Shown piece after piece: positions 3,463 through 23,325 of a stretch of DNA of 64,000 nt. Positions within the stretch are counted from its first letter, which is position 1, and the number at the start of each line of letters is the position of its first letter. Location: the NCBI GenBank assembly GCA_027923505.1, contig BROI01000002.1, forward strand, positions 868,001-932,000, given 5' to 3'. The notes beneath the pieces were generated by a model that ran no database searches, had not been told where the DNA came from, and saw only the letters and a list, made by a program, of their open reading frames with translations. The position numbers were made by a program, and so were the translations under genes. The DNA is from Mayamaea pseudoterrestris (lineage: Eukaryota).

Positions 3463-4611
3463 ATGTTGGACGCCGTCGTGCAGCTTCTTCGCAATGGGCT
3501 TTGTTGCATCAAGAACTTACATCTCTTTGAAAAGACGTTCCTCTGGGACAGTTCCATTCCACCAAAATACTACGACCTTCCAGAGCCACTTTCTCACACA
3601 ACGCCACTGGAAGTATTAATTAGTATTTTTCAGCTGTATGCTCTCATTAGCTGTACGCGTGGAGGCTTGTCCATGATGAGCCAGTCGTTTGGAAAGCTGC
3701 GCCGACTGGGAAGCATCATTGAGTATGTCACCAGCGATGCAGCAATCACGAATGCAACAAAGAAGAATGATGACACTTGCGACAATCCTCTTGCTTTGAC
3801 AAGCGACAGGATTGTGCAGCAGTCGCTCATGCAGGAAGCTAATAATGCGATTCGCAGTTTGGTGACTGGATTTTTGGTTTTCTTCATTGGATGTGGTTTC
3901 GTCTGGTTGGTGGCCAATTCGTGGCACGTTACGTCGACGGATTGGCTTGGCGGCACGCAAGGCTTGATTCATGCGCTGTCGGTGCAGGAAATATGTTTAT
4001 TGCCATGTCTATACTTCATGATTGCCTTTGGGCAGACGCTTTTGTCGAAAGCCAAGCGAATGGAGCGATTGGTCAGGACGTTGCGGGGCCAAAAAAAGCT
4101 CACCCCGACCCAGCTTGGAGTCGAGGAACTCGAGCTTTTTGCGCAATACACTCCCGCTTGGGAGGCGGGTGTAAGTGCTTTCGAGTCGCATAATGCTGCC
4201 GCGGATGAAAAGCTTGTGGCAGCGGAGAAGGAACGAATTGAACGTTGCTTGCAAGAGCTTGAGAAGAAGAGTCCACAGCAAGTCTTTGACATGGCCGATG
4301 ATCTTGTTGCTGCCGCTCGCGTGACTCGCATGGAAGGTTACCGGGAGTTTCTCTACTTTTTGATCAATTTGTCGGCCTTTTACGGGTATATGATGGGAAT
4401 TGTTTGCTATTACTGGCAGGAAGAGGTGAAGCACCCGACCTGGGTAAAGAGTTTCCTCTTGAACATGACAATTGCAGACGCCGACTGGAGAGGAAACATG
4501 ACTGGAGATATGGCATGGACAATCGAGCCGATTGTCATTTTGACCAGTCCTTTCCTTTTGGCGTCGCTCAAGCCGACAAAGAGGGAAAGCAGAAAAGTGA
4601 AGGCGGACTAG
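3463..4611 (+). CDS. Hypothetical multi-pass membrane protein (382 aa)
   Basis: Long intronless ORF with about 5 hydrophobic segments and a lysine-containing C-terminus (RKVKAD). Confidence 0.75.
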   Translation: MLDAVVQLLRNGLCCIKNLHLFEKTFLWDSSIPPKYYDLPEPLSHTTPLEVLISIFQLYALISCTRGGLSMMSQSFGKLRRLGSIIEYVTSDAAITNATKKNDDTCDNPLALTSDRIVQQSLMQEANNAIRSLVTGFLVFFIGCGFVWLVANSWHVTSTDWLGGTQGLIHALSVQEICLLPCLYFMIAFGQTLLSKAKRMERLVRTLRGQKKLTPTQLGVEELELFAQYTPAWEAGVSAFESHNAAADEKLVAAEKERIERCLQELEKKSPQQVFDMADDLVAAARVTRMEGYREFLYFLINLSAFYGYMMGIVCYYWQEEVKHPTWVKSFLLNMTIADADWRGNMTGDMAWTIEPIVILTSPFLLASLKPTKRESRKVKAD

Positions 4612-6070: not shown

Positions 6071-8527
6071 TCATCGCTGCTTCTTTGGCGCGTTGGCGCT
6101 CCATGATAAAGGTAGTTTTTCAAATCTTATCTGATTGAACATCCAAAGTCTGTCTCGACGTGCATCATCATGTTCCAGTGTCACATTCAGTAGCTTCGCC
6201 ACCAGCTGGGGTCGGTTGCCTTGACAGAGTCTTTTAATGACTTCAATTGACACTAAACCTTTCTGCTTGCATTCTTTAAACGCGAAGCTGACGCACTTGA
6301 CCTGCAAATCGCTTCCGCGTACCAGCAGATTGCTGCAGCAAGAGAGCCAAAAGGCATAGGTAAAACAATCGGGTTCGACGATATCTGAAACTCGCAGTGC
6401 CTGGAACGCCTTAGTGGCAATTTGGAAGGCTTCGGTCTTGTTCGACTGCATCGTATATGCGGCGCAATTCAAAACGTAATTATAAGGATACGTGTTCGGT
6501 CGGAGATTTGGATCCTTGGTTTTCTCATAGAGCTGTAGTAGCTGCTGAAGAAGCTCGTACGTACGCAGCACATTCCCTTGGTTCTTGGCCAACGTGGCAA
6601 TCGCCATGGTAAAAGTTCGAACGTTTGGCCGATCAGTTGCCTGACCAGTTGCTTCATACAAGGCAAACACCTCTTGCAAAAGCTCCTCGGCCTTGTCCGA
6701 CGCGCTTGGTTGACGGGCGTTGGACAAGCACTCGAGCACCGATGTATACGTGATTATATCGGGTCGGTTAAGCTGCGACTCTTTCATTTGCTGCAGTAGT
6801 TTAAGTGCCTTGTTTGTTGCTTGCGGGTCTTGGCTCTTTGCATAGGCATTGATTAACTTGTTGAATAGAAAATTGTTCACGTCAATTGATGTATCACCAG
6901 CCTTCCACAACCGTACAATGAGAAAGAGCAGGTTTTCAGCTTCTGGCAAAAGCATTGGTTCACCGCTTTGGAGCCAAGCTGTGAATAATACCTTATAGGA
7001 AAAGCAGTTTGGCCGAATATATGGTTTTTCGTATCGATTGTCTTCCATGTATTGAACCAGCCTTCGAATTTTCTCCAAGGCAACCTTTTCCTTTATCGCC
7101 GAGCTCCGTAGATAAGCATTGAGAATGGTGTTGTAGGACACAACGTCTGCAGAAAGGTTGGAGCAAGTCTTGGTTGCCGATTCGATGACTTTGAGTATGT
7201 GCTCCGCTTCCTCGAAGCGCCCGCTCCGACAGTAGGCCAAAATGACGCCGTTGAACGCAATCAAGGACGGCTCCGAGTCTTTTGGTAAAGTTTTCAGCTC
7301 GTGATGTCGCAGCATTTCCTGAAGCAGCTCGTTGCACCGCTCCGCAGCACTCACCTGGTTTGACTTCGACCAAACCAAAATGGCATTCGAGTAAACGTCA
7401 GCGTTGAACCACTGCTTGGCGTCGTCATCATCGCTGTCTGCCAAGTCTGCTCGAGTCGTTTTTAGGTAATTCAAGCATGTTTCAGCGTTTGTTACACTTT
7501 CTTCGCTTCCGCACTTGCTCCAGGCTTCCAACACTAGATTGTGTGCCTCCATTAGTATGCGCGTACTATTCTCGTGCTTTAGAGTGTCAACGATCAGTTC
7601 GTTGAGCAAGTCCTGCGCTCGATCCGCGCAAGCGCTTCCCTGTAGATTGGCTTGCTCGCGGGCACTCGTCCGTAGCACGAGCAGTTTGCTTTCGACGAGT
7701 TGCTGCGACGAAAAGTACATTTTCATTTTCTCGAGCAAAGTTTCCGCCTTTGACGCATAGTTGCATTCACCCCGAGGAGTCGCGCAATTGGCATATGCTT
7801 GTAGCGCAATATTGTAGGTTTTTAAGCTCACTTGATCCGGTGAAACAATCGTTAAGAGCTCTTGAAGCAGTTCCTCCACTCGATCCGCGGCGCGGCGCAA
7901 CACGCGAGTGGATGTTGCATTATTGTTTTGCTGCGGCTTTATTGTCGCATACCACCGAATCCGATCTCGATGGCAGTAAGCCTGCATGACCAACTGAAAA
8001 CTCGTTTCATCTGCCGCTTGTATAGCGACCAAGTGCTTGAGCATGCTGTAGACGCGGTCAGCCCCGTCCAAGTCGGATTCTTCGGTAGATAACAGTGGCG
8101 GCTTGCGTTGGCGCTGGCGCGCGCGAATCAACTGCTGGTTCAAGGCCCCTGCTCTGCTTTCCAGAACTCTGATCATGTCTTGGTGAAACTGTACATTGTT
8201 CTTTCTTGTTGATTGCTGTATTGGTAATGAAGTGGAAGATTCTTGAAATGAAGAAGTTGTTGATGTTTCTGTTAAAGTCGACGAATCGTCGTTTGCTGTT
8301 CTCTCGCTGACACTTGTCTCTCTTAGCTGTATCAACATCTTTGATATCCTTCTTCGCCTACATATTCCAGTCGATTGTATTCGTCGTGTTGAACAAACAT
8401 GCTTTCCATCAAAATAACTTGTAGCAACATGATGCAATGACGGAGCTATCCAGGCAAAGCAAAACTTTGAAGCGACAACAATCAGCAAAAGTAGCTCTCC
8501 GAGTTGCAGAGTTCGTATTATGTACAT
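6071..8527 (-). CDS. Pentatricopeptide-repeat (PPR) protein, probably plastid-targeted
   Basis: Repeated PPR-like units (DVVSYNTILNAY, PDIITYTSVLECL, PNTYPYNYVLNCAA, PDCFTY); signal-like LLLLIVVASKFCFA-W; start placed at MYIIRT although the ORF extends to 8596. Confidence 0.85.
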   Translation of the reverse strand: MYIIRTLQLGELLLLIVVASKFCFAWIAPSLHHVATSYFDGKHVCSTRRIQSTGICRRRRISKMLIQLRETSVSERTANDDSSTLTETSTTSSFQESSTSLPIQQSTRKNNVQFHQDMIRVLESRAGALNQQLIRARQRQRKPPLLSTEESDLDGADRVYSMLKHLVAIQAADETSFQLVMQAYCHRDRIRWYATIKPQQNNNATSTRVLRRAADRVEELLQELLTIVSPDQVSLKTYNIALQAYANCATPRGECNYASKAETLLEKMKMYFSSQQLVESKLLVLRTSAREQANLQGSACADRAQDLLNELIVDTLKHENSTRILMEAHNLVLEAWSKCGSEESVTNAETCLNYLKTTRADLADSDDDDAKQWFNADVYSNAILVWSKSNQVSAAERCNELLQEMLRHHELKTLPKDSEPSLIAFNGVILAYCRSGRFEEAEHILKVIESATKTCSNLSADVVSYNTILNAYLRSSAIKEKVALEKIRRLVQYMEDNRYEKPYIRPNCFSYKVLFTAWLQSGEPMLLPEAENLLFLIVRLWKAGDTSIDVNNFLFNKLINAYAKSQDPQATNKALKLLQQMKESQLNRPDIITYTSVLECLSNARQPSASDKAEELLQEVFALYEATGQATDRPNVRTFTMAIATLAKNQGNVLRTYELLQQLLQLYEKTKDPNLRPNTYPYNYVLNCAAYTMQSNKTEAFQIATKAFQALRVSDIVEPDCFTYAFWLSCCSNLLVRGSDLQVKCVSFAFKECKQKGLVSIEVIKRLCQGNRPQLVAKLLNVTLEHDDARRDRLWMFNQIRFEKLPLSWSANAPKKQR

Positions 8528-8854
8528 TTCGGTGGGCCTAGATGATTGTGCAACTGGTTGCGGCCAAGTAGAAACAATGATGACGGCCATGGTCAAACGA
8601 ACGATCGAGTGGTGCTAACGTGACGCAATGAAGTACCGCTGCGTCATGAAGCTCGCGCGCAAGCCCGGCATCCTTACACTGGACCAAACAGTGGTGTAAT
8701 TTGAATGAATGTGTTTCGTCCATGCGCGTGCCGAGCCACCCGTCAAATTTTGCGGCTCACAAAATAAGACTTGGTGCAACGACTCGATTACTTTTTGCGT
8801 TCACACCCAAAGACGAGAATCTAGGGAGCAATCTGAAAACTTTTCAACACCAAG

Positions 8855-10585
8855 ATGGAAGAGGAACCATGGGATGAGTCTGTGCTCGGGAAGAAAGCAC
8901 GATCAGACTCTTTCGTTCCACCAGACGCGGATGGCCTCGACAGAACTGATTCTCTAGGCAAGAACGACTACTCCAATGAAGATGCCTACAGCGGATATGA
9001 GGACGGTCAATACGAAGAGGACGCTGCAGGAGAAGTCTCTTCAAGTCCTCAAGACATTCGTCAGGAAGCTCTCAAGATATTAGAGCTTGCCGAGTCGCCA
9101 ACCGGACGACGTAGCCAAAGCACCTTTGCCGTTCACCGAACTTCGACTGGAGGCTACACTACTGGAATTTCGAGCGAAGCATCCATGCGACACACGCCAG
9201 CCGCTTTGTCAGGATCTCTCTTTACGACCAACCGCACCAGTGCGGCGAACACCTATCGCGACGACATGAGCAGCAGGCGCCCACCTTGGCAAGCTCCGAC
9301 CACCGAAGACATGGAGTACGGAGATGAAGAGTTGGTGGACGCCATTTCCAAGGTTTATCGCACCGACGCGAGCAACAATTGGTCGTCGCGATATTCACTT
9401 GATCGCACCATGGCTGCCATGATGGCAAGCAACAAAAATATCAACATGAGGTCATTTCGTGACAACGGAACGTCGGAGCGAACGTCTGCCACGGGTCTGA
9501 CTGCATCGAGCGCCTATGATAAGAATGTCGCCGGTAGCGGAGCTGGCAACAGTAACATTTTTGGAAGCGGCTTTTCGTTTCGTCAAAATAGTGTTTGGGG
9601 CAAGCAAAATGCTGTCTTTGAGCCCAATGCAAACTTGCATGACGCGGGTGATCAGTTGCCCGACCTGCCGACGCGCAAGTCATGGCAGGAGCAGGTGCGC
9701 CAGAGGAAGAAACAACGTCGGTGTCTCATTTTTGTTGCCATTGCTGTCTTGGTCTTCATCGTGACAATTTCAGCGACAGTGGCCAGGAAGAATAATAAAG
9801 CGTCAGAGGTTCCATTGACCATTTATGTCACGTCGGATGTACCGTACGCTGTTGCAGATCAGAAGAAGTTTATTCATGATCTTGGCCTTATCAAGACTAA
9901 GGCAAATTATATCGTCCATCTGGGAAATATTCAAAATGTCAGCGAAACGAATTGCGGACTCGCGCAGTACATGGAGGTTGCCGCCATGTTGGAGGAAACG
10001 AAAATTCCAACGTTCATAGTACCTGGAGAGGACGACTGGGCCAACTGCCCAGACCAGCATATTGGCTTTGCAAGATGGAACAACACATTTGCCAAGTTTG
10101 CGCATAAAACGGGGTCTCGTATGAAAGTTGACTACCAGCAACGTCGCTTAGAAAACTTTGCTTTTGTGGAAAAGAACGTGCTATTTCTCAGTGTTCATGT
10201 TATTGGCGGCAAACCAACCACCTACAGTGAATTTTTAAGTCGTATGAAAGATAACATGAATTGGATAAGAGGCATGTACAAGCTTCATGCCGAAGAAGTC
10301 AGCGGTGTTGTCATTTTCGGCAACGCCGCACCAGGCCTTGTGCAGCTCCAGGACTTCTTCGATTCCATGGCATCGCTTCTTGGACCGACGGGTAAGACAG
10401 TTCTCTATATTCATTCCAACTCTGGCTCAAGTGGGGTGAGTCTGCACAAGCCTTTTGGCTACAGCAATATGGTGACGATTCAAGCGCCTGTCGGAGGCAA
10501 GCAACCGCCACTTCCCATTAGTATCGGATCCGGTAAGCATCTCTTCTCGATCGGCGGACTTGATGTCCCTTACCGAAGTCGTTAA
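8855..10585 (+). CDS. Type II membrane protein with a C-terminal calcineurin-like metallophosphoesterase fold (degenerate motifs)
   Basis: Disordered N-terminus, basic cluster plus single TM (LIFVAIAVLVFIVTISATV), then SDVPY / VHLGNI / VPGEDDW / YIH motifs. Confidence 0.75.
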   Translation: MEEEPWDESVLGKKARSDSFVPPDADGLDRTDSLGKNDYSNEDAYSGYEDGQYEEDAAGEVSSSPQDIRQEALKILELAESPTGRRSQSTFAVHRTSTGGYTTGISSEASMRHTPAALSGSLFTTNRTSAANTYRDDMSSRRPPWQAPTTEDMEYGDEELVDAISKVYRTDASNNWSSRYSLDRTMAAMMASNKNINMRSFRDNGTSERTSATGLTASSAYDKNVAGSGAGNSNIFGSGFSFRQNSVWGKQNAVFEPNANLHDAGDQLPDLPTRKSWQEQVRQRKKQRRCLIFVAIAVLVFIVTISATVARKNNKASEVPLTIYVTSDVPYAVADQKKFIHDLGLIKTKANYIVHLGNIQNVSETNCGLAQYMEVAAMLEETKIPTFIVPGEDDWANCPDQHIGFARWNNTFAKFAHKTGSRMKVDYQQRRLENFAFVEKNVLFLSVHVIGGKPTTYSEFLSRMKDNMNWIRGMYKLHAEEVSGVVIFGNAAPGLVQLQDFFDSMASLLGPTGKTVLYIHSNSGSSGVSLHKPFGYSNMVTIQAPVGGKQPPLPISIGSGKHLFSIGGLDVPYRSR

Positions 10586-10886
10586 TCACTGCCTATACAA
10601 TGCCTAGGATATAATGTATTTTAGTGGCATACTTTATCAAAGTAAATCATCATTGTGTAGCAACAGCGATGTCATAAGTGTGACTTAGTGATGGTCGTAG
10701 ACATAATAGTCCTCTACTCAGGATGTCTCAAGCTGTCACAAACTTCCTGTTGCAGAGTCCATGCCCGCATCTTTTCTCGCTATTAAAAAAACTAAACGCA
10801 CAAACCATTGACAGTCAATGTGTCTCCGATGGTACGGAAGCACGCCATGCGTGCCGTCGGTGGATACAAAGCAAAATTCGACTTCT

Positions 10887-13071
10887 TCACGAGTTTGACA
10901 GCGAAAGAGAGTCTCCAGCGACACTGCATGGACCTTCACGCAAGCTATTAATGGCATCATTGTCAACTTCCTGGGCATTCACTGGTCGCAGCTCATTTAA
11001 TGACGCATCCGACAATGAAGCACGCTCCCTAACAGTACCAAGGGGTTGCTCGGTTTCCATTAGAAGTGAGATCGGCGCTGGAGGCAAGTCTGAAAGTGAT
11101 GCATGACGTCCGTTCATTATGGGCCGTTCAAAGCTTGTTTCGCCAATGAAGCGAGAGCTCAATGAAGGTTTCAGCTTTGGCATCAGTATAGCTGCTCTGG
11201 TTTTCTTAGGAGATCTGCCAGTAGCGTCGAATTCAACTTCATCATCGACAGATAGGACTTCTATTTCATCGCAAACGCTCAATTCGCTAAACTCGCTCTC
11301 ATCTTCCTCAAGCTGCCCAAGAGCTTGCATGGCAAGGTGAAGGTTCTCAACAACCAAGAATTGCTGTTCGGCCATGTCGGCAATGTGGTGTTCTAAATGC
11401 AGTACACGATCGTGAAGCTCCCCCTCCTCTCGTTTTTGCTCATCCTTCTCGTCTTGATGTTCAGTGACTTTAACAGCATCACAGACAACAGCAATGATAA
11501 GAGAGTACAGAATGAACGATGTTATAAGAAGGTAGCTTGAAAAGATGGCCCACGACCAAGGATAGGCGTCCCCGACTGTTGGGGAAAGCGCAATGGTTAG
11601 ACGATTTCCGTTCATTCATTTCCTATCCGAAAACGTAAAGCTTACCTTGCCTGGCAATATAAGCCCAGTTATCCAATGTAATACATTGAAACAGTGTGAA
11701 CAGTGACGCAAACAATGTCGAAAAATAATCTTCGTCAGTCAGACCTTCGGTAAAAAGAGTCTTGAAAAGGACAGTGCACATGACGGCATAAATGTACATG
11801 ATAAGTACCAGCAAAGCAACAATTCCTCCCATGCTTGGCGCTACTGCAAAAAGAGCAGTCAGTAGATTGCGAAGAACAGTTAGTCGGGTCACTAACCGCA
11901 GCGCCCGGAAAATTCGAAAGGCTCGAATGATTTGGAAACTGTCGAGTGCCCAGCTCAGCACAATGATACAAAAATCGAACAAGAGCCAGGCATCAAGAAA
12001 CAAGTGAACGCCATGAAAAGCCAGCTGCATCGCCAGTTCAAGCGTAAAGACCGAAAGGAAAACGTCATCGGCTACTTGGAAGGCGTAGCTCACCATGTTA
12101 TTGTCTTGTACAAAACCAAAGGTGGCAACGCCCATCATTATTGCGTTTATGACGATCAGACCAATCATGACAATTTGCACACGCTCATTGTTCACAAGCG
12201 CCCCGCTTACATCACGGAATCGCTGCAGCGCATTCGCACCTTCGTGCCACCAATTTCGAAGTTGCTGAGCGGGTCGTTGTCGCTTGGTCTTGTAGCTCGC
12301 CCTCTTGTTTCCGTTGCCTCCATTTTGTGCGTGAACTACAAATGCCGAAGATGGCTCGCCAAAGTACATGCTGGTTGATCCATCGACAGCACAAAAGGAA
12401 GCCCCGAAATCAACACTAGGATCTGGTTCGGTCGGCATGGACAGGTGCGTCAGAGGCGCCGAGCCTTCCGCATATTTGGATAAATCAATCGGCACGAAAC
12501 CTCCAATGCTAATGTCGTCATTAATCTTTTCCGTCCGATCATGCGCCAAAGACTCATGCGAAAAGGATAGGGTGCTTCGGTGACGCACCGCGTCACTGGA
12601 GGTGCTGTCGTCAATGTTTCCATTCGTCACTGTCGTTGCCGAAGTCCTTGCGCTCAGTCGCTTGGCTGTCATTTGTTTCAAACTGCGAATGGATGCTTTC
12701 GTGGAGTCGAATGAAAGTGATGGCCGACTCGATTGCTGCTTGCTTCCAAGAAAGCGTTTGGATGACGATGGTGAAATGGACGGCCTGAAATTGTTTTCTG
12801 CTACTGATTCACTCCGTAGTGACCTAAATGAGGTTTTCGGCTGATTTGGAAGGCTCCCTAGCGAGAAATGAGGCTTCTTCAGATCCGGGCGAAGCTCAGT
12901 CTGTATGTCTTGATGAGTTTGTTCCTGTCGTTTGGAGCTGTCTTTCTGGGGCGTCGGCGACTGCGGTCTAGGAGAGTCGCACCGAACGCAAGGTTCTTCC
13001 CCGGAAACTGCAGCTTCGTCATTACATATTTCGATGGAATTGTCAAGTATTCGCTCGTTTTTATCCGACAT
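10887..13071 (-). CDS. Single-domain (6-TM) voltage-gated Na+/Ca2+ channel, EukCatA-like, paralogue 1; intron 11576-11645
   Basis: S4 IRAFRIFRALRLVTR, pore FQCITLDNW, S6 YSLIIAVVCDAV, C-terminal coiled coil; 70-nt intron joins ARQ-VGDAYPW in frame. Confidence 0.9.
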
Positions 13072-13583
13072 TATAGAAGGTAGAAGATGGTCTCAAAGTA
13101 TCAAATTTGTTTGAAGGCGAGGACGAAATCTGACAGCTCGGACGCCCGAATAATGCCAGGCTCCCTCCGACAATTGTGAAGCCCTTCAATCTCTTTTTAA
13201 CGACAGTAGAAGTTTGCGTACAAGATCACCCCGACTCTGCCGCCTTGTGTATAATATAATGGTGGCGCGAGCTGCATTATTCGCCATCGTCGCTTGATCA
13301 GCTCGTTCTTTGACGTCATCCTGTGTTTTCAGTCATTACCGGTCATTGTTCTAACGACTATGATCGTTGCAGTAGACCAACGACGTCACTATGACTAAAG
13401 AACCACCGAAGTTCCGATCTCATTTTTCGATTAAAGCCTCAAGTACCGCAAAGACGCCTATTTGTTATAGCCCCACGACATGAACCGCTCCGTTTCGGCA
13501 GAGACTGTCACCATGGCGCGAGCGACACGAAAACAAGTTTGCCTCTCACTTACTGACCTCATTTCGCGTAAAGTTGCACAGCA
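13072..13583. promoter_or_regulatory. Putative bidirectional promoter between the two channel genes
   Basis: 512 bp between divergent start codons with no long ORF; activity is inferred only. Confidence 0.5.
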
Positions 13584-15270
13584 ATGAGTGGTTCGTCGAC
13601 TGCTCCTAATGATAGCTGCGATGACCGAGCGAGCAGCGTAACGTCGTTGGAAGACTCACTACAGCCCGAAGAACGAGGAGGCAATCTTCCAAATGTCGAA
13701 GCTGAGCCTGAACATTTTTTAAGCTACAAACACAAGGATGGAACGAATGAGAATACTACAAATGGAGACAATGAGCTAGCTTCTGTTGAAAGCTTATCTG
13801 CGCATAGTTCTGCTAGTGGCAAAGACAGAAGCTCTGATGGAAGCCATAGCACCTCAAAGGACAAGCTACTAAATGGCAATCATGTCCTGCAGCGCATTCC
13901 AAGGCGAATTTCAACGCAAAACTTCTCCTCAACTTCGTCATCCGTCAAGGACGACCCATTGCAGCATCGCCGCACCATGACGGAGATTCCCTCAACGCCG
14001 ACAAATACATCCTGGCCTAGCATGTTTCTTGAAAAATTCCAGCTCATGCGCTATCAATGCGGCATGTTCATCAACCATCCCAAAGTACAGCTTCTCATTG
14101 TTGCAATGATTGCAGTCAATGCATTGATGATGGGCATTGGAACGTTTGATTTTGTGGAAATGAATGCACAACTCAACTACGCGTTTGACAAGACGGACCA
14201 CGTGTTTTTGATCCTATTCACCATTGAACTTGGTCTGCAGTTTGTCTATCGCGGTTGGCGACTCATAAGTGATGGATGGCTGGTGTTTGATATGCTGGTC
14301 ATCATCATCTCGTGGACGTTTGACTCGTTCCAAATAATTCGAGCCTTTCGTGTCCTGAGGGCGCTGCGACTCATTACACGAATCAAGGTGATGCAGAATC
14401 TCGTCATTGGTAAGGCATATCGAACAACACTTTGCACGCTTAAATACATGTAATGTCGTCGCCTTACCCATTTCTTGCAATTGTAAAGCTCTTTTTGGCG
14501 TCGTGCCTCGCATGTTTGCCATTGGAATGCTGTTGATGCTCGTCTCGTACATTTTCGCTGTCATGCTCACGGAACTATTTCAAGACTCGTACGAAGACGG
14601 ATTGACGGAAATTAACTATTTTGGAAACCTGTTTCGGACCCTGTTTACCTTGTTCCAATTTATGGTGTGTATATGAAAAGCGCAGTGTAATTGTTTGCTG
14701 TCTGGACGAATACTCAACGACTTTCTCTCCCTTTGTTAGACCATGGATGACTGGGCTTCATCTGTGCGAGAATTATCAGTGGAATATCCTTGGGCCTGGT
14801 TCCCGATTGTGGTATTTGTTATCATTACAGCCTTTGTTGTTGTGAACCTCATTATTGCTGTCATTTGCGACGCTGTTTCGGCACTACACGACGACGAAAA
14901 GGCTAAGATTCACGGAACCTTTGAGTCCGACGAGGACCAAGACACCCAAGATGGATCGACTGCTAGCCGCTACAGTCTTCGAAAAGACTTGAATGCACAA
15001 CTTGATGGACTCGAAGAAAATGTTGGCGAACTCATGCGCATGCAGGAAGAAACAATGATTGCCTTGCGCAATTTGGCGGAATACATTGCTGAGAAGCAAC
15101 GACGAAAAAGCTCCAAAATGCGAAGATCGACAATTTCTACAAAGAAAAGCAATAACCCCGAGATATTGCTGACGAGTAGGCGAAGAAATGATCAAAAATC
15201 GACAAAGCAATCGACGAGTTCAAAAAACGCGCATCACGAAAACAGCTTCGGACGTAGGGGTAGTTTCTAA
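13584..15270 (+). CDS. Single-domain voltage-gated channel, EukCatA-like, paralogue 2; introns 14410-14488 and 14665-14739
   Basis: S4 IRAFRVLRALRLITR, spliced pore FQFM-TMDDW, S6 VVNLIIAVICDAV, C-terminal coiled coil. Confidence 0.9.
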
Positions 15271-15303
15271 AAAATTCATGTTAAGATATATTTTAGCAAG
15301 TAT

Positions 15304-16350
15304 CTATTCGTCATGTGCCGCTGATTCCTTTGTCAACACGACGATGTAGCAGAAATGGTCAGGATGAGCAAGCAATTCCCAAAGATCAGACACGCTAACG
15401 TTTAACGGCGGTTGTATGCCTTGTATTCTCCATCCAAGCACTCCTTCGGACGGTGCAACGTCTTGATCGTTATCGCTGGCACTTGCAAACAAATCGGGCA
15501 ACCAATCATGCAGAAGCATGCCAAGCGTCTGCACTGTTCCATCGTTCATACTCTTGCGACACGACCGCTGCATTGGAACTGTCGACGAGCCAACGTACAG
15601 GCGGACTGGTATTAAATGCTCCAACATTAACAGTGCGTTATTTTCCGCGTGAACACTGTCGTAGAGTCGCAAATTGGACGTGCCGACGGCATCCCACAGT
15701 TTCGAGTGCGACTCCTTGGTCACATTCATGGCAACCTTTTGCGATCCATGCTGCAGACAAAGGGCTTGCTTGAGTGAGTTCTTGTAGTAGTACTGCACTT
15801 GCGTCAAGACTTGTGTATCAAATGGGAGTATTTGACTGCTAGGGTAGGCTGTAAAATGGAGTTTTATCCGCCATGGAAGCGAATGATGGGGTGCCTTTTG
15901 ATCCCATAATGTTCCGACGAACACGTGCCAGCGAAGCGCCATTTGCGTCTCCTCGTCTTCAAACCAGCAGACTGGGTATTTCTGTTGTTGCTGTGTGGAG
16001 GTAGAGGTGGCATTGCTTGATGTGACGGATGACGACGCTGCACTTAGCGAGGAATTTACATGACTTGTAGCTTCATCTGTTTCATCATGATGCGACGAAC
16101 TCCCAATATCAGGTTCCTCCTGCACCATTCCCGACGCAAACGACAGTATGGAAGGAGCGAAGCGATGAAGCCTCATGACAGCTGATTCGAGTCCAATGTG
16201 CAGATAGGTTTGTCGCGACACGAGCGAGTGTATCGGATGCGGCATGGTTGGACTGGAGAGCGAGGATGGTGCTAATGAAAGTACAATGGGAATGGAACCG
16301 GCCCAGTTTAAAGATTGAATGGATTGCTGTGAATTGCTAGTATTGTTCAT
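15304..16350 (-). CDS. ATG5: Autophagy protein 5
   Basis: WAGSIPI, LRWHVFVGTLWD, LPWRIKLHF, NSLKQA (conjugation Lys region), HPDHFCYIVV; start placed at MNNTSN. Confidence 0.9.
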   Translation of the reverse strand: MNNTSNSQQSIQSLNWAGSIPIVLSLAPSSLSSPTMPHPIHSLVSRQTYLHIGLESAVMRLHRFAPSILSFASGMVQEEPDIGSSSHHDETDEATSHVNSSLSAASSSVTSSNATSTSTQQQQKYPVCWFEDEETQMALRWHVFVGTLWDQKAPHHSLPWRIKLHFTAYPSSQILPFDTQVLTQVQYYYKNSLKQALCLQHGSQKVAMNVTKESHSKLWDAVGTSNLRLYDSVHAENNALLMLEHLIPVRLYVGSSTVPMQRSCRKSMNDGTVQTLGMLLHDWLPDLFASASDNDQDVAPSEGVLGWRIQGIQPPLNVSVSDLWELLAHPDHFCYIVVLTKESAAHDE

Positions 16351-16564
16351 GGTATGCGGCAGTGCTGATTGTAAGTGAACCTGCACACCTTCGAAAGCAA
16401 CAAAGCAACATGGAAACAGCGTCGTTGCAAATCGCAAAACGTCTTCAGTGTCACACCATCACACGCTTGACGTCACGACGTTTCGAAATCCAAAAGCGTG
16501 ACGCTTTCACCATGGAAAGAATTTGAAGCAGCGCAGCAGCAGCAGAGACAAAACCTCCCTCGTC

Positions 16565-18652
16565 ATGGCGTACCCTGAAAATACGGCTGTGCCTGGAATA
16601 GTCACATCCTGCCAAGGACCAGCGCCTTGTCAATATTTGCTTTTGAAGCTGCAGCGACCGTCGCTGCAGGTGCCATGGGGGCTCACCTTGAGCATGTTTG
16701 ATGGATCAGTGGTACTACTTGGAAATGTCAACCAATTGGCCTTGTCGCGTTTGATGCTGGAGTCACATGAGAAACGCTGCCACTATAGTCCCTGCATATT
16801 TTGGAATCGAGCGAGTCATGTAGATGTTTCAACGTGGACGCGGTTTTTATCGTTGCAGCAGCAGCTACAAGGTTTATCAGCATATGCTACAAGTGTGAAC
16901 AGGAGCGCTTTTGGTGACAATGCGAGACTACTACATGAAACGTTACTCCCAGGCGACTGCATTATCGCAGTCAATGGATTTCGTGTCGTGGAGATTGCAA
17001 GATCGCTCAAGGAGCTGACCGACTACTTGCGACTGCAAACGTCGCTGTCGTTGCTCGTCTATCGCAATCCATGCGCCACGAGCGCTGCCAAGGCTGTCAA
17101 TGGAATGACTGCTACTCCGATCAATGTTTCTCAGGCGGCGTATCAAGCAATTCGCAAAGTCTATCCGCTTTTAGCTGCAGCAAAGCGACCAGTTGTTGTA
17201 ACACCCCCTCGAGGTCAACCTGGAACGAGCCGGCCATTCAAGCTACCCCCATTTCATCAAGTTCAGTACCTGAATCAACCATCGGCACCGCGGCAACTAT
17301 ATGTGACATCTCCAGCTCCGCCCATTTGCTACAGGAATCCCTTGTTTACGGATTCCGTGACTGGCAAGAATTTGCCATACGAGGACAATTGGGAGATTGA
17401 TAATTTCGTTCAAGAGGACGGCATGCAGGAGCACTTGTTCTTAAAACCTATTGATAACTATGCAGCGTGGCTGGAGAAACGAAAACGAACATGGAGGAAG
17501 CGGTATCGAGTATACGCGTTGGATGATGAGCCGCAGCATGACAGGGAAATAGTTGAGCGGCTTGCAACCAACGTGCCCATTGACTTTTGGACACGCCAAG
17601 GTTACAGCTCACTGCAGGAATGGATGGCAGTCTCCACTCGCAAATGGAAGCAATCCTACAGCTGGAACCAACGCAAGCGCCGCAAACTGGAGCACGATTG
17701 TGAGCAAATTGTTTCGCTTGACAATGGGAATTTTGTAGAATGGTTAAGCATCCGCAAGCATCAATGGCTGATTCTTCGGCGAGTGCGTTACCGCCAGCGC
17801 CTGGAGGAGCAGCACGTGGAGATGATGCATACACCGGAGGTGGATTTAGCTGGAATGTCGAGCAACCACGACATTGTCTTGGTAGACGCTCTATTGGAGG
17901 AGCAAGAGAAGAAGCAACGAGCTTTGAAGTCGCGTGACCCGTTGGACTTGCTCTTCTTTTTGGATGGAAAGAATGGAGTACCGGACGATGTTGTTGCACA
18001 CTCTATTCGGTATTTGGAACCTATGGAACGCCGGAACTTACTTGCTATTAGTCGCAAGACGAACCACGCGCTTTGTGCGCGCGAAGATGTATGGCGGCAG
18101 TTGTGTGAGTCACACTGGAAAATACCAAGGAGACCACGAAAGCCATGGCATGAAATTTACTTTACAACTTTACGACGGGAAACAGAAGGCTCGCGAATAA
18201 AAATCGATGCGCTTCTTGCAAACGCATCCGCTATATTACTAAAGGCAGACCACGTTCAAGCAATTGAAAAGCTCGTCAAAGAGGTGGAGAAAGACAAGAC
18301 GCTAGACTTTGTCAACTACAGCAGTGGCGTCGTCTGCGAGCGAAACTCACTGCTTAATTTGGCAGTTATTCACCGTCGTCACAAGACTGTTAAGTGGCTT
18401 TGCGAGAGAAAGGGCGCCGACATCGAGACTTCGGATCGTGGACAATTCACGCCGTTAATGAACGCTGCATGGGGTGGGGATCGTTACCTTGTTCGTTATT
18501 TTATGCATAGAGGTGCCGATCGATTCAAGATAGGAAGATGCCATTATACGAAGCCTTTAGCAGCACCAGATTTTAAAGGATTTGACGCTGCAGGCTGGGC
18601 AGAGCAACGCGGACACCCCGAAATTGCCAAACTCATTCGAATGGGTTTGTGA
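16565..18652 (+). CDS. Multidomain protein: PDZ-like N-terminus, Trp/Arg-rich repeats, F-box-like motif and ankyrin repeats
   Basis: PWGLTL and LLPGDCIIAVNG (PDZ-like); VPDDVVAHSIRYL...DVWRQLC (F-box-like); SLLNLAV, GADIE..D..FTPLMNAA (ankyrin). Confidence 0.7.
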   Translation: MAYPENTAVPGIVTSCQGPAPCQYLLLKLQRPSLQVPWGLTLSMFDGSVVLLGNVNQLALSRLMLESHEKRCHYSPCIFWNRASHVDVSTWTRFLSLQQQLQGLSAYATSVNRSAFGDNARLLHETLLPGDCIIAVNGFRVVEIARSLKELTDYLRLQTSLSLLVYRNPCATSAAKAVNGMTATPINVSQAAYQAIRKVYPLLAAAKRPVVVTPPRGQPGTSRPFKLPPFHQVQYLNQPSAPRQLYVTSPAPPICYRNPLFTDSVTGKNLPYEDNWEIDNFVQEDGMQEHLFLKPIDNYAAWLEKRKRTWRKRYRVYALDDEPQHDREIVERLATNVPIDFWTRQGYSSLQEWMAVSTRKWKQSYSWNQRKRRKLEHDCEQIVSLDNGNFVEWLSIRKHQWLILRRVRYRQRLEEQHVEMMHTPEVDLAGMSSNHDIVLVDALLEEQEKKQRALKSRDPLDLLFFLDGKNGVPDDVVAHSIRYLEPMERRNLLAISRKTNHALCAREDVWRQLCESHWKIPRRPRKPWHEIYFTTLRRETEGSRIKIDALLANASAILLKADHVQAIEKLVKEVEKDKTLDFVNYSSGVVCERNSLLNLAVIHRRHKTVKWLCERKGADIETSDRGQFTPLMNAAWGGDRYLVRYFMHRGADRFKIGRCHYTKPLAAPDFKGFDAAGWAEQRGHPEIAKLIRMGL

Positions 18653-18747
18653 ACGATCCAGAGCTTATTGATTGCGACATGGGCGCTATTGCAGGTTTTA
18701 TTAACAGTTTTTACTTTAGATGGCAGTCGATTCTTAATTTCTCGATT

Positions 18748-21700
18748 TTAAAATAGCTTACTTTTGCTGGAATATAGATCGGCCACCCGTAATCTTCGGT
18801 TCTTCGGTGGGCCAACAGACGTCGGGGACGAAGTTTGTTTGGACGACCTTCCGGTACATTCTTTCCTGCCATGCTTATCTAGCAGGGGTACTGATGGATG
18901 TTCAAGCTGGGAACGGCTGTATGAAAGACTCTCGTCGAACTTGGAAGACTTCAGCTTTGGTGCGCTCTGCTTCTTGGTATTGTCGCGTTTAACAGTGGCG
19001 ACAAGCTCTTGCTGTTTAGCAGTTTCGAAAAACGACGCGCTAAATGCTTCCCATTGTGGTTCTGTGTCTTCCAACTTTCCAAACGTAATATTTTCCGCCT
19101 TGGGCGTTACCGGCTGATTGTCAGTCGATAGAGTCGCTCTACCTCGCCGAATCGGAGTTTTGTGCAGCCATACGACTTCGTTGATTGAGTCCGCTCGATG
19201 CTTTGGTGCGCTGGCAGAGCGTGCTTCCGTTCTACTGTCCGTGTATGTTGTTGTCTCCTTACTCGTACCCTTGTCGGTGGCCAATAACGATACACCGGTA
19301 TTTATGTATTGAATGTCGTTTTTGGTTGTGAAATGCTCCCATGACTCGTTAGGCTTTCCTGGCGGAGCGCTGACGGATCTTGAAAGCAATGCATCAGTAT
19401 GCAGCTCGACGGCAGTAATCGAAGCAGATTGCTTTCGAGGCGGCGTGAAACTCTCCCAGGCGCCAGACGGCTCTACCGATAGTTCATTATCCACAAGCTT
19501 GAACGATCCTTCATTAGTCGCGTATGTGCTAAGCAGGTCGTCATCCGTTGGCGCATCTCTCGAGCTCTCCATCACATAGCAGTCTTTTGAAGAGCCCTCA
19601 ATGTAGTGCAATATGTAAGTGGAGTCATCCTCTTCAAGCACCGATAACGGGACGATATCGTCATCCTCTTTGCATTCTTTTTCAGCCGAGGAATAGTTTA
19701 GAACTAGTCTCTCCTCGTTACTGGATTCCAGGTAGCCGCTAACGATTTCATTGGTTGAAAACCTTTTCTCGTTGGCAAACTCTCCGTCATCCATATCGAT
19801 TTCCATGCAGGAAGTCTTAGCTACATGACTACCTTCCATTTCATCTTGAACAGGCGCTTGCACTGAAGTCACTTCATCCACAATAGCCTCATCGAAGGCA
19901 GAAAACTCCAAAGAAATGCGATCGTCTTCGCCTGAGAAGTCCGAAGTAAAGGTGCTTGTTGGAGCAGACATGAATGTCATGGCTGTCTCTTGTAAAGAAG
20001 AAAGCACGGTTTGAGAGAATGCAAATCCCGTATTCGATATGTAATCAGCAGCTGCGTCGTTGTTCTTAGCATCCAGCACTTCTTCTTTCACAGGCGGTAA
20101 GACAGTTATTGGCGATGGGACTGGCTGTGTAGGTGTTGCTTTTCTATTGGTTTTTGTGCGTCGCGCCTTTGCCTCAAGCTGAGTAACAAGGCTCTGATAC
20201 ATGCTGGGAAATCTTTGCCGACAAACAGATAGCACTTGAGCAGCTTTGCGTCTAGCCTTAGGCGATGCCTTTGATGAAGGAAAAACAGCATTGAATATCT
20301 TCTGTTCGTCGGGTGAGAGATCCTCCGTTCCTCCAGCGACGCTGTCTACATTGTCAATTGATCCACATAAACTGACTGTCCAAGATGGAGGAGTTGTCTG
20401 TCGAGATGTGATTTCGTTCCAAAGACTGTCAAAGAAGGCAACATCATAAATTAAAGTTTCAACTTCTGGGTCGCGATCTTCGAGAGGCTCATTCTGTTCC
20501 AAATGAGTCGACGTGCCAAACTCACCCGAGAGATGTTTTTCCGTCGTCCGGAGAAGTTCATCGCTCCCAACATTGCAATTCATCAGCTTAAGTAGGTCTT
20601 TAAAGGCGATGGAAGCAAACGATGGTCCAGATTCAGTGTCGGTTTCCAAGGTCGCGGCTGAGTACTCTAGTTTCTTCGCTGGTTCTGGACTCACTGTTGG
20701 CAGGTTTTCAACAGGTGGCGAACTGGGAGACACGGCTTCTTTGTTTCCAGAGTCGTCCTCGCCAAACGAAAGAAAACTGAAGAAAGACTTGACCAAACCA
20801 TTGGCTTCCTTGACGTCTGCTTGAGGGATTTCGAGTGTGTGTATGGTGTACGTATCGGAGGAATACGATGAATCGTCGGAGCTTGTGTACTCGTCTGGTG
20901 CAATGTGCTGAAACAAGTTATCTGACTTTACCGGCGATGATACCTGGAACGTAGGGTGTCCGATTGATAATTGCTTCTTCCCACGGGATGACAGCTTTTC
21001 TTTAGTCTGTTGCTCTCGCTGTTGCTGCAATTGAATTTTCTGCTTTGTGCTAAGACCAATATTCTGCGCAGCAGTCGGAACGGTCAGTCGGAGTTTCTTC
21101 TGCGCAAAAGAACGCTTGGACTTGGTAACTGGAGCTCTTAAAGCCTGACTTTGTGCATGTGTGTGAGGCGGACGTAAAGCAGACGTTTTAGAATGTTCTA
21201 AACCAGTCGTCGCTTGTAAATTATTCGTTTGCTCGAGTTCGTCTTTATCTGCTTCCAGCTCAAGCCCTTCGAAGATATCTTCTTCGTCGTCGTAGGTGTC
21301 TAAAGAATGCGGAGTGGAGACACAACTACTGTAGCCTTCCGTCGGAAGCGATGATTCGTTGTCCGTACCATATGAACTTCGAGTATATTCAACCGTACCT
21401 GATATGTCAGTGTCCGTTTGTGTATGTCCAGAGCTGCCGTGAATGCACACCTGTTTCGTGTTTCGATTGAATGGAATGACTCGTTCTAATGCAGCCACTA
21501 TTGAAGACACTTCCGCTTGATAAGTATTTGAGCTGGCAACTTCTCCACGAGGACGGCTTGATGAGTCGGTCGCAACGAACGCTCCGCGTTGCAAGCAATT
21601 TGCTGTAGAAAATCGTTTAGGAATCGCGGGCGGTGGTCGTTTGCTTTGAAAGGACTCCTTGTATGACGACGAATCGTGAGAAGTGAATGACTGATTATTG

Positions 21701-23325
21701 GTTCTGGGCGTTTCCTTGGCAGCAAACTCATCAGTCATTGTAATTACCGGCTCCTGAAATGCATGAGTTGGCGTCATCTCACACTTTTCGGAGAAATGTA
21801 CCATGGGCTGCGTCGGGAGCTGTGTTTCTTGTGGCAAGGGTGAGGATTTGTCGTAAACTCTTAACCCATCGCCTTCACATTCTTGCATCACATTTGTGCG
21901 CAACGCTGGCGCCCGCCAAGACTCTTCAAGCGTCATGAATGACTCATCAGCTTGACCAATCGGACTGGCTTGCAAGCTCGAAATGTCCATGCTGTTATCG
22001 GGTCGACTTGGAGTCGTTGGCAAATCGAAGACCGCTCCGCCCGCGCGAGGAAAGAGTGTGACAAGTGGGACGCGTCGAGGAGTACCCCTGCTTGGCGATT
22101 GACTCGTCTCAAGAGGAGCTTCCGGCTCGAAACTCTTCTCTAGCGCTCCCAAATTCATTTTCGTAGCTGCAACGCTGTCTTTTACCAGCCTAGATATAAC
22201 TCCATTCGCCGCAATTGACGGGGAAGCGAGCAACTCGCTCTCGGCGAGCAGCTTGGATGGCGTCGCCGAGTAATCCAATGTCAAAGTAGTCTCTTCCTTG
22301 TCAGCCGCAGGCTCGTCCACTTTCAAGGGCGAAAGGGCTGGTGGATACTCGCCTTCCTGCTTGATTGGAGACTTGGCAGGCGGGTCCTTGCTGCCAGTTT
22401 GAGCTTGTTTCTTTGCCACTCTATCACCGTCTACTACTTTTTCTTGCCGCACAACATATGAAATTATATCGGTCTGGGTGGCGCTTTGCATGCTTGCCCC
22501 GTTTGATTCACTCCCTTCCGCCTTGTCAAACGTCAAGACGCGGTTTACAATACTTGAATCATTCGATGTATTCCTGCCTTGCTCAAAGAGGGAGATTTTG
22601 TCCATAATCTTGCTCCTCGTTGCTCGCTGCAATGGACTCGGCGTTGGCAATGGACTTGTTGCGACCGCCACCTCGAGCGACTCTGATGACTGTTTCAATG
22701 ACGCAGGTGAACCTGTGGTTGCGAAAGCCACGTCCTGGTTCGCATCAAGATGCGACGTGACGGGGCTTGGGCGCTGCGTGACAGTCATGTTCCTTTCGCT
22801 AAAAGTATTTATAGCACTCTGAAACAGTCGTTGCTGCACTGGAGCAAGGTTAACCTTTTGCGTGGTCATTGGTGCTGATCCGGACAAGCTCTTCTTCTTC
22901 TTACTGCTGCTGCTATTATGACTGTTTTCAATGCCATGTTCCTTCCAAGGCGAATTTTCCAAAACGGATCTTGTAGTCTTTATATTGTTGTTTGGTGAAA
23001 CGCTCTTTTTGGAATCAAACGACGCGACAAGCTCGGACACCTTGTTTAAAGGCTCTGGTGCTCGCTTGACGACTTCCATTTTCGCCGCCATGTTCAAGAC
23101 GAGCGATGACTTTGTCTTTATCGACAAGGCGCTCTCCAACGACTTGTTGAGGTGCTGTTGAATGTGAAAATTGCCGCTGCTCAAATCAACGCCGTCGTCG
23201 CGAGAAGCGTCTGCACCCTTGGAAATCTTTGCAAGCGGCCAGCTTTGAATGCTGCTGGTGCTAGTGTCTCCAACGTTTGGTAGAGCCAATGATTTGCTGG
23301 ACGGTGAAGACACGTGCTGCTCCAT
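18748..23325 (-). CDS. Large, low-complexity Ser/Thr/Glu-rich hypothetical protein (1525 aa)
   Basis: 4.6-kb uninterrupted ORF; no recognisable domain. Confidence 0.75.
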   Translation of the reverse strand: MEQHVSSPSSKSLALPNVGDTSTSSIQSWPLAKISKGADASRDDGVDLSSGNFHIQQHLNKSLESALSIKTKSSLVLNMAAKMEVVKRAPEPLNKVSELVASFDSKKSVSPNNNIKTTRSVLENSPWKEHGIENSHNSSSSKKKKSLSGSAPMTTQKVNLAPVQQRLFQSAINTFSERNMTVTQRPSPVTSHLDANQDVAFATTGSPASLKQSSESLEVAVATSPLPTPSPLQRATRSKIMDKISLFEQGRNTSNDSSIVNRVLTFDKAEGSESNGASMQSATQTDIISYVVRQEKVVDGDRVAKKQAQTGSKDPPAKSPIKQEGEYPPALSPLKVDEPAADKEETTLTLDYSATPSKLLAESELLASPSIAANGVISRLVKDSVAATKMNLGALEKSFEPEAPLETSQSPSRGTPRRVPLVTLFPRAGGAVFDLPTTPSRPDNSMDISSLQASPIGQADESFMTLEESWRAPALRTNVMQECEGDGLRVYDKSSPLPQETQLPTQPMVHFSEKCEMTPTHAFQEPVITMTDEFAAKETPRTNNQSFTSHDSSSYKESFQSKRPPPAIPKRFSTANCLQRGAFVATDSSSRPRGEVASSNTYQAEVSSIVAALERVIPFNRNTKQVCIHGSSGHTQTDTDISGTVEYTRSSYGTDNESSLPTEGYSSCVSTPHSLDTYDDEEDIFEGLELEADKDELEQTNNLQATTGLEHSKTSALRPPHTHAQSQALRAPVTKSKRSFAQKKLRLTVPTAAQNIGLSTKQKIQLQQQREQQTKEKLSSRGKKQLSIGHPTFQVSSPVKSDNLFQHIAPDEYTSSDDSSYSSDTYTIHTLEIPQADVKEANGLVKSFFSFLSFGEDDSGNKEAVSPSSPPVENLPTVSPEPAKKLEYSAATLETDTESGPSFASIAFKDLLKLMNCNVGSDELLRTTEKHLSGEFGTSTHLEQNEPLEDRDPEVETLIYDVAFFDSLWNEITSRQTTPPSWTVSLCGSIDNVDSVAGGTEDLSPDEQKIFNAVFPSSKASPKARRKAAQVLSVCRQRFPSMYQSLVTQLEAKARRTKTNRKATPTQPVPSPITVLPPVKEEVLDAKNNDAAADYISNTGFAFSQTVLSSLQETAMTFMSAPTSTFTSDFSGEDDRISLEFSAFDEAIVDEVTSVQAPVQDEMEGSHVAKTSCMEIDMDDGEFANEKRFSTNEIVSGYLESSNEERLVLNYSSAEKECKEDDDIVPLSVLEEDDSTYILHYIEGSSKDCYVMESSRDAPTDDDLLSTYATNEGSFKLVDNELSVEPSGAWESFTPPRKQSASITAVELHTDALLSRSVSAPPGKPNESWEHFTTKNDIQYINTGVSLLATDKGTSKETTTYTDSRTEARSASAPKHRADSINEVVWLHKTPIRRGRATLSTDNQPVTPKAENITFGKLEDTEPQWEAFSASFFETAKQQELVATVKRDNTKKQSAPKLKSSKFDESLSYSRSQLEHPSVPLLDKHGRKECTGRSSKQTSSPTSVGPPKNRRLRVADLYSSKSKLF

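Follow-up and report, generated by a model that had tools for sequence, protein, structure and literature searches.

The closest characterised relatives of the genes described here are the EukCatA channels, the drivers of rapid electrical signalling and of gliding in diatoms, themselves major primary producers. Studies of these channels have so far dealt with single subunits. Expressed alone in HEK293 cells, both PtEUKCATA1 of Phaeodactylum tricornutum (filter TLE-WAD, Del type) and OsEUKCATA1 of Odontella sinensis (TLDAWAD, Full type) give robust, fast, depolarisation-activated Na+/Ca2+ currents (Helliwell 2019). Three EukCatA isoforms are present in P. tricornutum, and the knockout of PtEUKCATA1 alone abolishes the depolarisation-induced Ca2+ signals with the two other isoforms remaining (Helliwell 2019). 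The division of EukCatA into Del and Full types is already in print (Irie 2021), and EukCatAs are described as having Asp at position 0, or Glu without an adjacent Ser (Helliwell 2020 preprint). The DNA analysed in this study is a 64-kb stretch (hereafter, the window) from Mayamaea pseudoterrestris, a freshwater raphid pennate diatom. Two channel genes of the window, gene A on the reverse strand and gene B on the forward strand, point away from each other, with a gap of only 512 bp between their start codons (ATGs). Gene A is placed in the Del lineage and gene B in the Full lineage of EukCatA, and the same divergent Del/Full pairing was found again in metagenome loci. The pairing is old, recurrent and not universal; the Del/Full split and, in general terms, the idea of heteromers were known before, and the recurrence of the divergent Del/Full pair is new.

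Both genes of the window were reconstructed exon by exon (Table 1), and each protein contains the Ion_trans domain (PF00520) once, at residues 299-514 in gene A (E-value, 2e-33) and 168-386 in gene B (E-value, 1e-35). Over S1-S6 the two cores are 48% identical (115/238 residues; BLASTP E-value, 9e-82), and the N- and C-terminal tails, Ser-rich in both proteins, cannot be aligned. An Arg-rich S4 segment with Arg at every third position is found in both, RAFRIFRALRLVTR in gene A and RAFRVLRALRLITR in gene B (cores RAFRIFRALR and RAFRVLRALR, respectively), a motif that is also present in the majority of the 121 sequences compared. The selectivity filters differ (TLDNW versus TMDDW), and no intron position is common to the two genes. 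Thus, re-derivation from the gene models bore out the description given by the first-pass annotation of this DNA, which had claimed a 512-bp head-to-head arrangement with similar S4 segments and different filters, different intron sets (all three introns differ in position, each being verified by spliced contigs), unrelated long N-termini (the tails fail to align) and two intact copies (the full-length spliced products equal database proteins, and both are transcribed). A tblastn search of the 64-kb window found no third channel copy. For two members of a three-gene family, such adjacency is not due to chance, and it reflects descent from a local duplication.

Downstream of S6, a 3-4 hydrophobic repeat was recognised, by eye only, at residues 529-561 of gene A and 418-450 of gene B. 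By inspection, these heptad segments align in register and have Gln at the same core position. The region after S6 of gene A has a net charge of -21 over 80 amino acids (aa), the lowest among 141 sequences.

Gene A resembles PtEUKCATA1 (P. tricornutum 43878) in its origin from a diatom, its single domain of six transmembrane segments, its Arg-rich S4 and its putative C-terminal coiled coil; it also belongs to the mostly TL[ED]-W lineage and shares the post-S6 motif IAVVCDAVKVTEH. For this comparison, the filter of PtEUKCATA1 was taken from Helliwell 2019, and its sequence stands outside the trees described below. Unlike in PtEUKCATA1, the filter of gene A is five residues long (TLDNWAY), Asp occupying the selectivity position and Asn being additional, and the protein also has a 280-aa N-terminal extension and a very acidic post-S6 region; the extra Asn is also seen in its sister sequence P0002 (TLENWAA). 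Gene B, in turn, is comparable with OsEUKCATA1, as it falls within the TLDxW lineage together with TLDAWAD proteins of Odontella aurita and has the post-S6 motif IAVICDA.SALHDDEKAK.HG. It differs in its filter (TMDDWAS), where Met replaces Leu, a second Asp is found at +1 and the last-position Asp is missing, and in having two introns and a 150-aa N-terminus.

In a search against solved structures, the best 60 of 133-134 matches were examined per protein. For both proteins, the nearest relatives in this set (E-values from 1e-29 to 1e-42) are the bacterial channels NavAb, NavMs and NaChBac, together with individual domains of Cav channels that have four of them. Among those listed, NavAb, NavMs and NaChBac are the best single-domain matches (E-values, 1e-29 to 1e-39), and these bacterial channels, as well as the engineered CavAb and CaChBac, share with the diatom genes the same S1-S6 plan and a T-L-[ED]-x-W filter. 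In bacterial channels, acidic substitutions giving TLDDW confer Ca2+ permeability, as cited in Helliwell 2019 and Irie 2021. The diatom genes differ from them in being eukaryotic and intron-bearing, in encoding long disordered tails and in forming two paralogous subunit types. The top PDB matches of both proteins are to domain II of Cav3 T-type channels (6kzp, 9ayg; 1e-38 to 1e-42), which is part of a four-domain polypeptide and not a free subunit; the filter deletion of Del-type channels is likewise said to resemble domain II of 24-TM (24-transmembrane-segment) Nav channels in Irie 2021. Within the best 60 of the 133-134 matches, no CatSper chain was found for either protein.

CatSper1-4 are single-domain subunits with T-x-D-x-W filters that make up an obligate heterotetramer, in which different subunits surround one pore and depend on one another. 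The likeness of gene A and gene B to this system lies in the single-domain subunits and concerns the working principle only. EukCats stand apart from CatSpers in the published tree (Helliwell 2019), and EukCatA subunits, in contrast to those of CatSper, yield currents singly, which speaks against obligate heteromery. Membership of gene A and gene B in CatSper is disfavoured, as judged indirectly from the PDB matches and the published tree, without a direct sequence comparison. The NCBI product name of gene B (P0209) is 'cation channel sperm-associated protein 3'; since the closest solved relatives are bacterial voltage-gated sodium channels (BacNav) and Cav domains, CatSper being absent from the best 60, this name is probably a similarity-based misnomer.

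All of the best 120 database relatives of gene A contain PF00520, and those named to organism are diatoms. The relatives (121 sequences) were sorted into two types by filter and post-S6 motifs, and three FastTree phylogenies were inferred: from 119 of the 121 sequences (P0011 and P0034 were left out for short coverage), from 212 of 219 sequences (seven short ones were left out), and from 97 sequences including seven bacterial-like outgroups taken from metagenome loci. All supports are FastTree Shimodaira-Hasegawa (SH)-like values. The short-filter lineage (T-L/M-E/D-W) is monophyletic with 52 tips and a support of 0.94, and includes gene A, the genes L001_g2 and L009_g1 and those of L002 and L003 from the metagenome loci described below, and proteins of T. 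oceanica, Thalassiosira sp. and a Fragilaria. Gene B falls among the T-L/M-D-x-W sequences, in a group of five (0.88) with Fistulifera solaris, L001_g1 and two more proteins, and this full-filter lineage takes in Odontella, Ditylum, Cyclotella, Fragilaria, Seminavis and Nitzschia. Both lineages therefore include centric as well as pennate diatoms, and the two genes nest among proteins of Fistulifera, Seminavis, Nitzschia, Fragilaria, Odontella and Thalassiosira. In the rooted tree, which was built without CatSper, EukCatB and EukCatC, the seven bacterial-like outgroups are set apart from the diatom group.

Gene A and gene B are thus EukCatA channels, members of a known and characterised family (Helliwell 2019). 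Judged by sequence, gene A is a member of the Del lineage and gene B of the Full lineage; because they belong to separate old lineages, the duplication that separates them is placed before the centric-pennate split. Pairwise identities agree with this placement: gene A is 61% identical to P0002 and 57% to L001_g2 versus 48% to gene B, and gene B is 57-60% identical to proteins of Fistulifera and Seminavis and to L001_g1. The assignment to EukCatA, which had been suggested from the letters of the DNA alone, is in line with Pfam, the relatives and the trees; the grouping of diatom sequences apart from bacterial-like ones also appeared in the phylogeny, and the duplication, described earlier simply as old, turned out to be much older than first implied, as it separates two deep EukCatA lineages.

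The trees also revealed that filter length and descent do not coincide in EukCatA, which is a new observation. EukCatA-Full is recognised by T-x-D-x-W, and gene B (TMDDW) both carries this filter and groups with the TLDxW sequences. EukCatA-Del is defined by the deletion of the fourth filter residue (T-L-E-W), which is not found in the five-residue filter of gene A (TLDNW). The deletion is likewise lacking in other members of the Del lineage, namely P0002/P0208 (TLENWAA), P0123/P0126/P0080, P0013, P0086, P0153 and P0122. Gene A is therefore a Del-lineage channel with a restored full-length filter, and it is recognised as such here for the first time. Since the published split by filter length mismatches descent, the full-filter channels of the Del lineage represent natural variants in which single-residue effects on selectivity can be followed.

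For comparison of gene order, metagenome contigs were scanned with an alignment of 17 Del-lineage sequences. The scan matched 84 stretches, from which 42 loci were taken; in 13 of them (L001-L013), the best segment reaches 45% identity or more to gene A. All of the 42 loci were searched with the cores of gene A and gene B (tblastn). A locus was considered testable if it held a gene of the Del lineage flanked on its 5' side by 4 kb or more of sequence, as is the case for four of the 42 (L001, L002, L003 and L009), and a Del/Full pair in head-to-head orientation was found in two of these four, L001 and L009. In L001, the Del gene (+ strand, ATG at ~4989, filter TLE-WAD) and the Full gene (- strand, ATG at ~4113, filter TLDAWAN) have ~875 bp between their ATGs; they fall into the same tree subgroups as gene A and gene B, respectively, and the Full gene is gapped where intron 1 of gene B is located. 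In L009, the Del gene (- strand, ATG at 7994, filter TME-WAD) is ~436 bp from the Full gene L009_g2 (8431-9871, + strand, ATG at ~8431, filter CMDEW), and a second Full gene comes next. As the L009_g1 protein shares 84% identity with a protein of Thalassiosira sp. and 73% with THAOC_17701 of T. oceanica, L009 is assigned to the Thalassiosirales.

The correspondence between the window and L009 extends to one further gene, gene Y, which is the sole non-channel tblastx match between the two. Its homologue in L009 (5555-6760, + strand) lies tail to tail with the Del gene and is 33% identical over the full length (E-value, 3e-69); in the window, gene Y is found 6.3 kb from gene A, on the corresponding side. 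The order Y-Del-Full is thus shared by a centric and a pennate diatom, which speaks for a single origin of the locus rather than convergence. No Pfam match was found for gene Y of the window, the L009 copy has a SAP domain, and a search of the ESM Atlas with gene Y gave no usable match. The gene Y family comprises 220 cluster representatives at E <= 0.001, 62 of them at <= 1e-30.

Published gene lists point in the same direction. The supplementary accession table of Murphy et al. 2024 gives EukCat protein IDs for 14 diatom genomes, 12 of which have at least two entries, and at least one pair of consecutive IDs is found in seven of these 12: C. tenuissimus (4201/4202 and 17379/17380), M. variabilis (666123/666124), T. 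pseudonana (2433/2434), F. crotonensis (6464-6468), N. putrida (5119/5120), S. robusta (2500/2501 and 22984/22985) and M. pseudoterrestris (4543/4544, with 4534 as the third ID). Here it is assumed that consecutive IDs denote neighbouring genes and that 4543/4544 are gene A and gene B, which were evidently already counted in that study. The third Mayamaea EukCat, nine IDs below the pair, would then be expected some genes ahead of position 1 of the window. In the available text of Murphy et al. 2024, adjacency is left without comment, 'tandem' is used once, of S. robusta in general, and 'heteromer' does not occur.

Four runs from one study cover the locus, none of them recorded as RNA, and their assembled contigs were compared with the window over 10000..16500. 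The contigs of runs X1 and X3 span the introns and the intergenic DNA and look like DNA, whereas those of X2 and X4 skip exactly 11576..11645, 14410..14488 and 14665..14739, which confirms all three introns. Gene A contigs extend to 13224 (X2) and 13230 (X4), and an X2 contig of 1583 nt runs through gene B (13559 to 15281) and lacks its two introns. Gene A and gene B are transcribed, and both are so in the same two runs. Positions 13231-13558 are without contig cover in X2 and X4, from which no inference was drawn. The two supplementary files of Suzuki 2022 contained no per-gene data under the locus tags of gene A and gene B.

The start codons of the divergent genes are separated by less than 1 kb. 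Based on this short spacing, the divergent orientation, transcription in the same runs and retention in distant lineages, we infer that the ~330-512 bp between the genes are a shared promoter region. A perfect palindrome, TGACGTCA, is located at 13311-13318, in the middle of the intergenic region, and its other copy in the 64 kb (16468-16475) is found a short way beyond the start of the ATG5-like open reading frame (ORF). As a candidate element it was rejected, because two copies in the window versus 1.32 expected is not a significant enrichment. Comparison of the three intergenic regions (window, L001 and L009) gave three common k-mers of length 7 versus 2.99 expected. A sigma-70 promoter/terminator scan was empty, the method being inapplicable to a eukaryote.

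Table 1. Gene models, protein segments and neighbouring features in the window (positions from the first letter of the window).
Feature	Position	Strand	Remarks
Gene A	ATG 13071, stop 10887-10889	-	704 aa, 2 exons; spliced product identical to P0001 (MPSEU_000142300)
Gene A, exon 1	13071..11646	-	Ser-rich disordered N-terminus (~280 aa), S1-S5, pore helix, filter; from strand reading and splicing
Gene A, S4 voltage sensor	11884..11925	-	RAFRIFRALRLVTR
Gene A, selectivity filter	11659..11679	-	TLDNWAY
Gene A, intron	11645..11576	-	70 bp, GT..AG, separates the filter/P2 region from S6; joint 11575/11646 in X2 and X4 contigs
Gene A, exon 2	11575..10887	-	S6, acidic neck, heptad (coiled-coil-like) segment, C-terminal tail, stop
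Intergenic region	13072..13583	.	Candidate bidirectional promoter; 512 bp between start codons
Gene B	13584..15270	+	510 aa, 3 exons; spliced product identical to P0209
Gene B, exon 1	13584..14409	+	Disordered N-terminus (~150 aa), S1 to S4-S5 linker
Gene B, S4 voltage sensor	14340..14381	+	RAFRVLRALRLITR
Gene B, intron 1	14410..14488	+	79 bp, GT..AG; joints in X2 and X4 contigs
Gene B, exon 2	14489..14664	+	S5 and pore helix
Gene B, intron 2	14665..14739	+	75 bp, GT..AG, immediately 5' of the filter; joints in X2 and X4 contigs
Gene B, exon 3	14740..15270	+	Filter, S6, neck, heptad segment, basic tail, stop
Gene B, filter	14740-14760	+	TMDDWAS
Gene B, S6	14800-14877	+	
Gene B, heptad segment	14989-15087	+	
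Gene Y	3463-4611	+	Multi-pass membrane protein, 382 aa, P0217; serves here as a syntenic marker only
ATG5-like autophagy gene	15304-16458	-	Tail to tail with gene B; Pfam ATG5 UblA, HBR, UblB

The explanation that we tentatively place first, although it stops somewhat short of being probable, is that gene A and gene B encode two co-regulated channel types, each able to act as a homotetramer, with mixed tetramers possible, and that they stem from an ancient Del/Full pair. The pair most likely dates from the inverted local duplication that founded the family, at a time when centrics and pennates had not yet separated; some lineages would have retained the head-to-head order and others lost it. 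The product of either gene is a complete subunit that comprises an Arg-rich S4, an acidic filter in the pore, S6 and a heptad segment in the C-terminal part, and four such subunits would form a depolarisation-activated cation channel. A promoter region of 330-512 bp shared by the two genes would bring both subunit types into the same cells. By analogy with filter mutants of NaChBac and NavAb, a stronger preference for Ca2+ is expected of gene B than of gene A, because gene B has Asp at the selectivity position and at +1, versus Asp followed by Asn in gene A; in terms of the pore, the two acidic rings of gene B (MDDW) are predicted to pass Ca2+ better than the single ring of gene A (LDNW).

Several observations weigh against this explanation. 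The Del/Full partner is missing from two of the four testable loci: in L003 no partner was found within 4.5 kb of the Del-lineage gene, and in L002 the Del-lineage gene has unrelated genes upstream and no divergent partner. The first-pass annotation had named synteny across diatoms as a check and a lack of conservation of the pair among the outcomes that would refute it; this outcome did not arise, as the pair recurs in L001 and L009 and is absent from L002 and L003. Positions 5332-14927 of L002 are collinear with 15322-24847 of the window, over the ATG5-like gene and two further blocks, and it is a Del-lineage gene (TLE-WAD, identical to P0021 over 269 aa) that stands there at the place of gene B and in the same orientation. 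The loci L007 and L008 match L009 at 95% identity from its third gene on (position 10292 and beyond) and at 83% over 10106-10273; upstream of 10106, at the site of the second channel gene of L009, they cannot be aligned with it, the explanation being either variation of the cluster among close relatives or an insertion. With outgroup rooting the Full group is paraphyletic, which makes the notion of two sister clades insecure. No k-mers of length 8 or 9 are common to the three intergenic regions. As regards regulation, the assembled contigs indicate presence and splicing and carry no expression level, and co-regulation cannot be demonstrated from them. Consecutive IDs are uninformative on lineage and orientation, and some of the runs, such as that of five in F. 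crotonensis, are probably recent tandem copies. In addition, neither F. solaris, where no IDs are close, nor P. tricornutum has consecutive IDs; the closest non-consecutive IDs are 3 apart in N. inconspicua, 15 in F. cylindrus, 20 in P. multiseries and 50 in P. tricornutum.

It is possible, although on the doubtful side, that the pair represents the two subunit types of one native heterotetramer, in which the promoter would set the subunit ratio and the mixed filter would tune Na+/Ca2+ selectivity. The linkage of Del and Full genes, kept in Naviculales-like pennates and in Thalassiosirales, speaks for this, but it is broken in L002 and L003 and, apparently, in F. solaris and P. tricornutum, and T. 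oceanica is listed with a single EukCat (Murphy et al. 2024). Likewise, gene A and gene B are transcribed in the same two runs, and the knockout of PtEUKCATA1 alone removes Ca2+ signals despite the two other isoforms; Del-type and Full-type members are, however, each functional alone in HEK293 cells (Helliwell 2019). At the level of the proteins, the heptad segments in register with their shared core Gln, as seen by inspection, are compatible with mixed assembly, whereas the segments of 80 residues that follow S6 are acidic in one lineage as in the other, with mean net charges of -10.0 (n = 64) and -7.9 (n = 77), and thus offer no charge complementarity. None of the computed results favours mixed tetramers. 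According to Yates et al. 2021, the currents of heterologously expressed OsEUKCATA1 and the native currents differ, and the native channel 'may be heteromeric'. In print, the matter of mixed native channels has come up as a remark only, and a full-text literature search for EukCat together with 'heteromer', which covered no supplements of bioRxiv preprints, found only Yates 2021.

Rather doubtful is the more specific proposal that diatoms inherited the Del/Full pair as a two-gene module from their common ancestor, the reason being that their native action-potential channel is a tetramer mixed from one Del-lineage and one Full-lineage subunit type. If true, such a tetramer would be a living intermediate between the homotetrameric bacterial channels and the pseudo-heterotetrameric four-domain Nav/Cav channels, and the conserved neighbour gene Y would become a candidate accessory protein.

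An unlikely explanation is that the adjacency is a neutral leftover of the original duplication, the two genes having separate promoters, separate control and roles that bear no relation to each other. Genes that diverge from within 1 kb of one another are frequent in compact genomes, loss of the linkage has occurred repeatedly, and no conserved motif was found among the three intergenic regions. On the other hand, a two-gene order (three-gene in L009) kept since before the centric-pennate split is unexpected for a neutral arrangement. Apart from the channels, gene Y alone was matched between the window and L009. A recent, Mayamaea-specific inverted duplication followed by fast divergence, although such events are the usual origin of adjacent paralogues, is refuted, since gene A and gene B belong to different deep lineages, share no intron and are each closer to proteins of other organisms than to each other.

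For two co-regulated channel types, which remains the preferred explanation, the recurring Del/Full pair provides a genomic reason to expect co-regulation, and it picks the subunits for co-expression, namely gene A with gene B or their orthologues.

Some further observations were made on the channel family. The size of the longest contig is equal for several Del and Full proteins (P0198/P0203, 4276 bp; P0029/P0117, 59796 bp; P0061/P0108/P0113, 32001 bp), which is a weak hint of further linked pairs. Among the Full-lineage proteins P0117, P0113, P0103, P0111, P0043 and P0044, some filters are without the conserved Trp (TLDALDQ, TLDAMEP, TLDDFST). The 1282-aa protein P0211 of Nitzschia inconspicua was considered as a two-domain fusion, which was ruled out, as it contains a single Full-type channel domain; together with ~750 unrelated residues, this domain most likely makes up a merged gene model. 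In L020, a 62.9-kb metagenome contig, two tandem BacNav-like genes are found at 10004-11670 with ~30% identity to the diatom cores, and this tandem pair is probably a bacterial duplication.

Within the window, the region just 3' of gene A varies between the contigs. An X1 contig jumps from 10603 to 10787, leaving out 183 bases, and position 10787 is also where contigs of X2, X3 and X4 stop, each with an identical string of 30 unmatched letters, so that 10603-10787 looks like a structural allele. Contigs also differ from the window at many sites in 12400-12900 and 13559-14408. For example, 36 differences per 850 bases were counted in the X2 contig of gene B and 20 per 723 in record 4 of X1, which suggests the presence of divergent haplotypes or strains.

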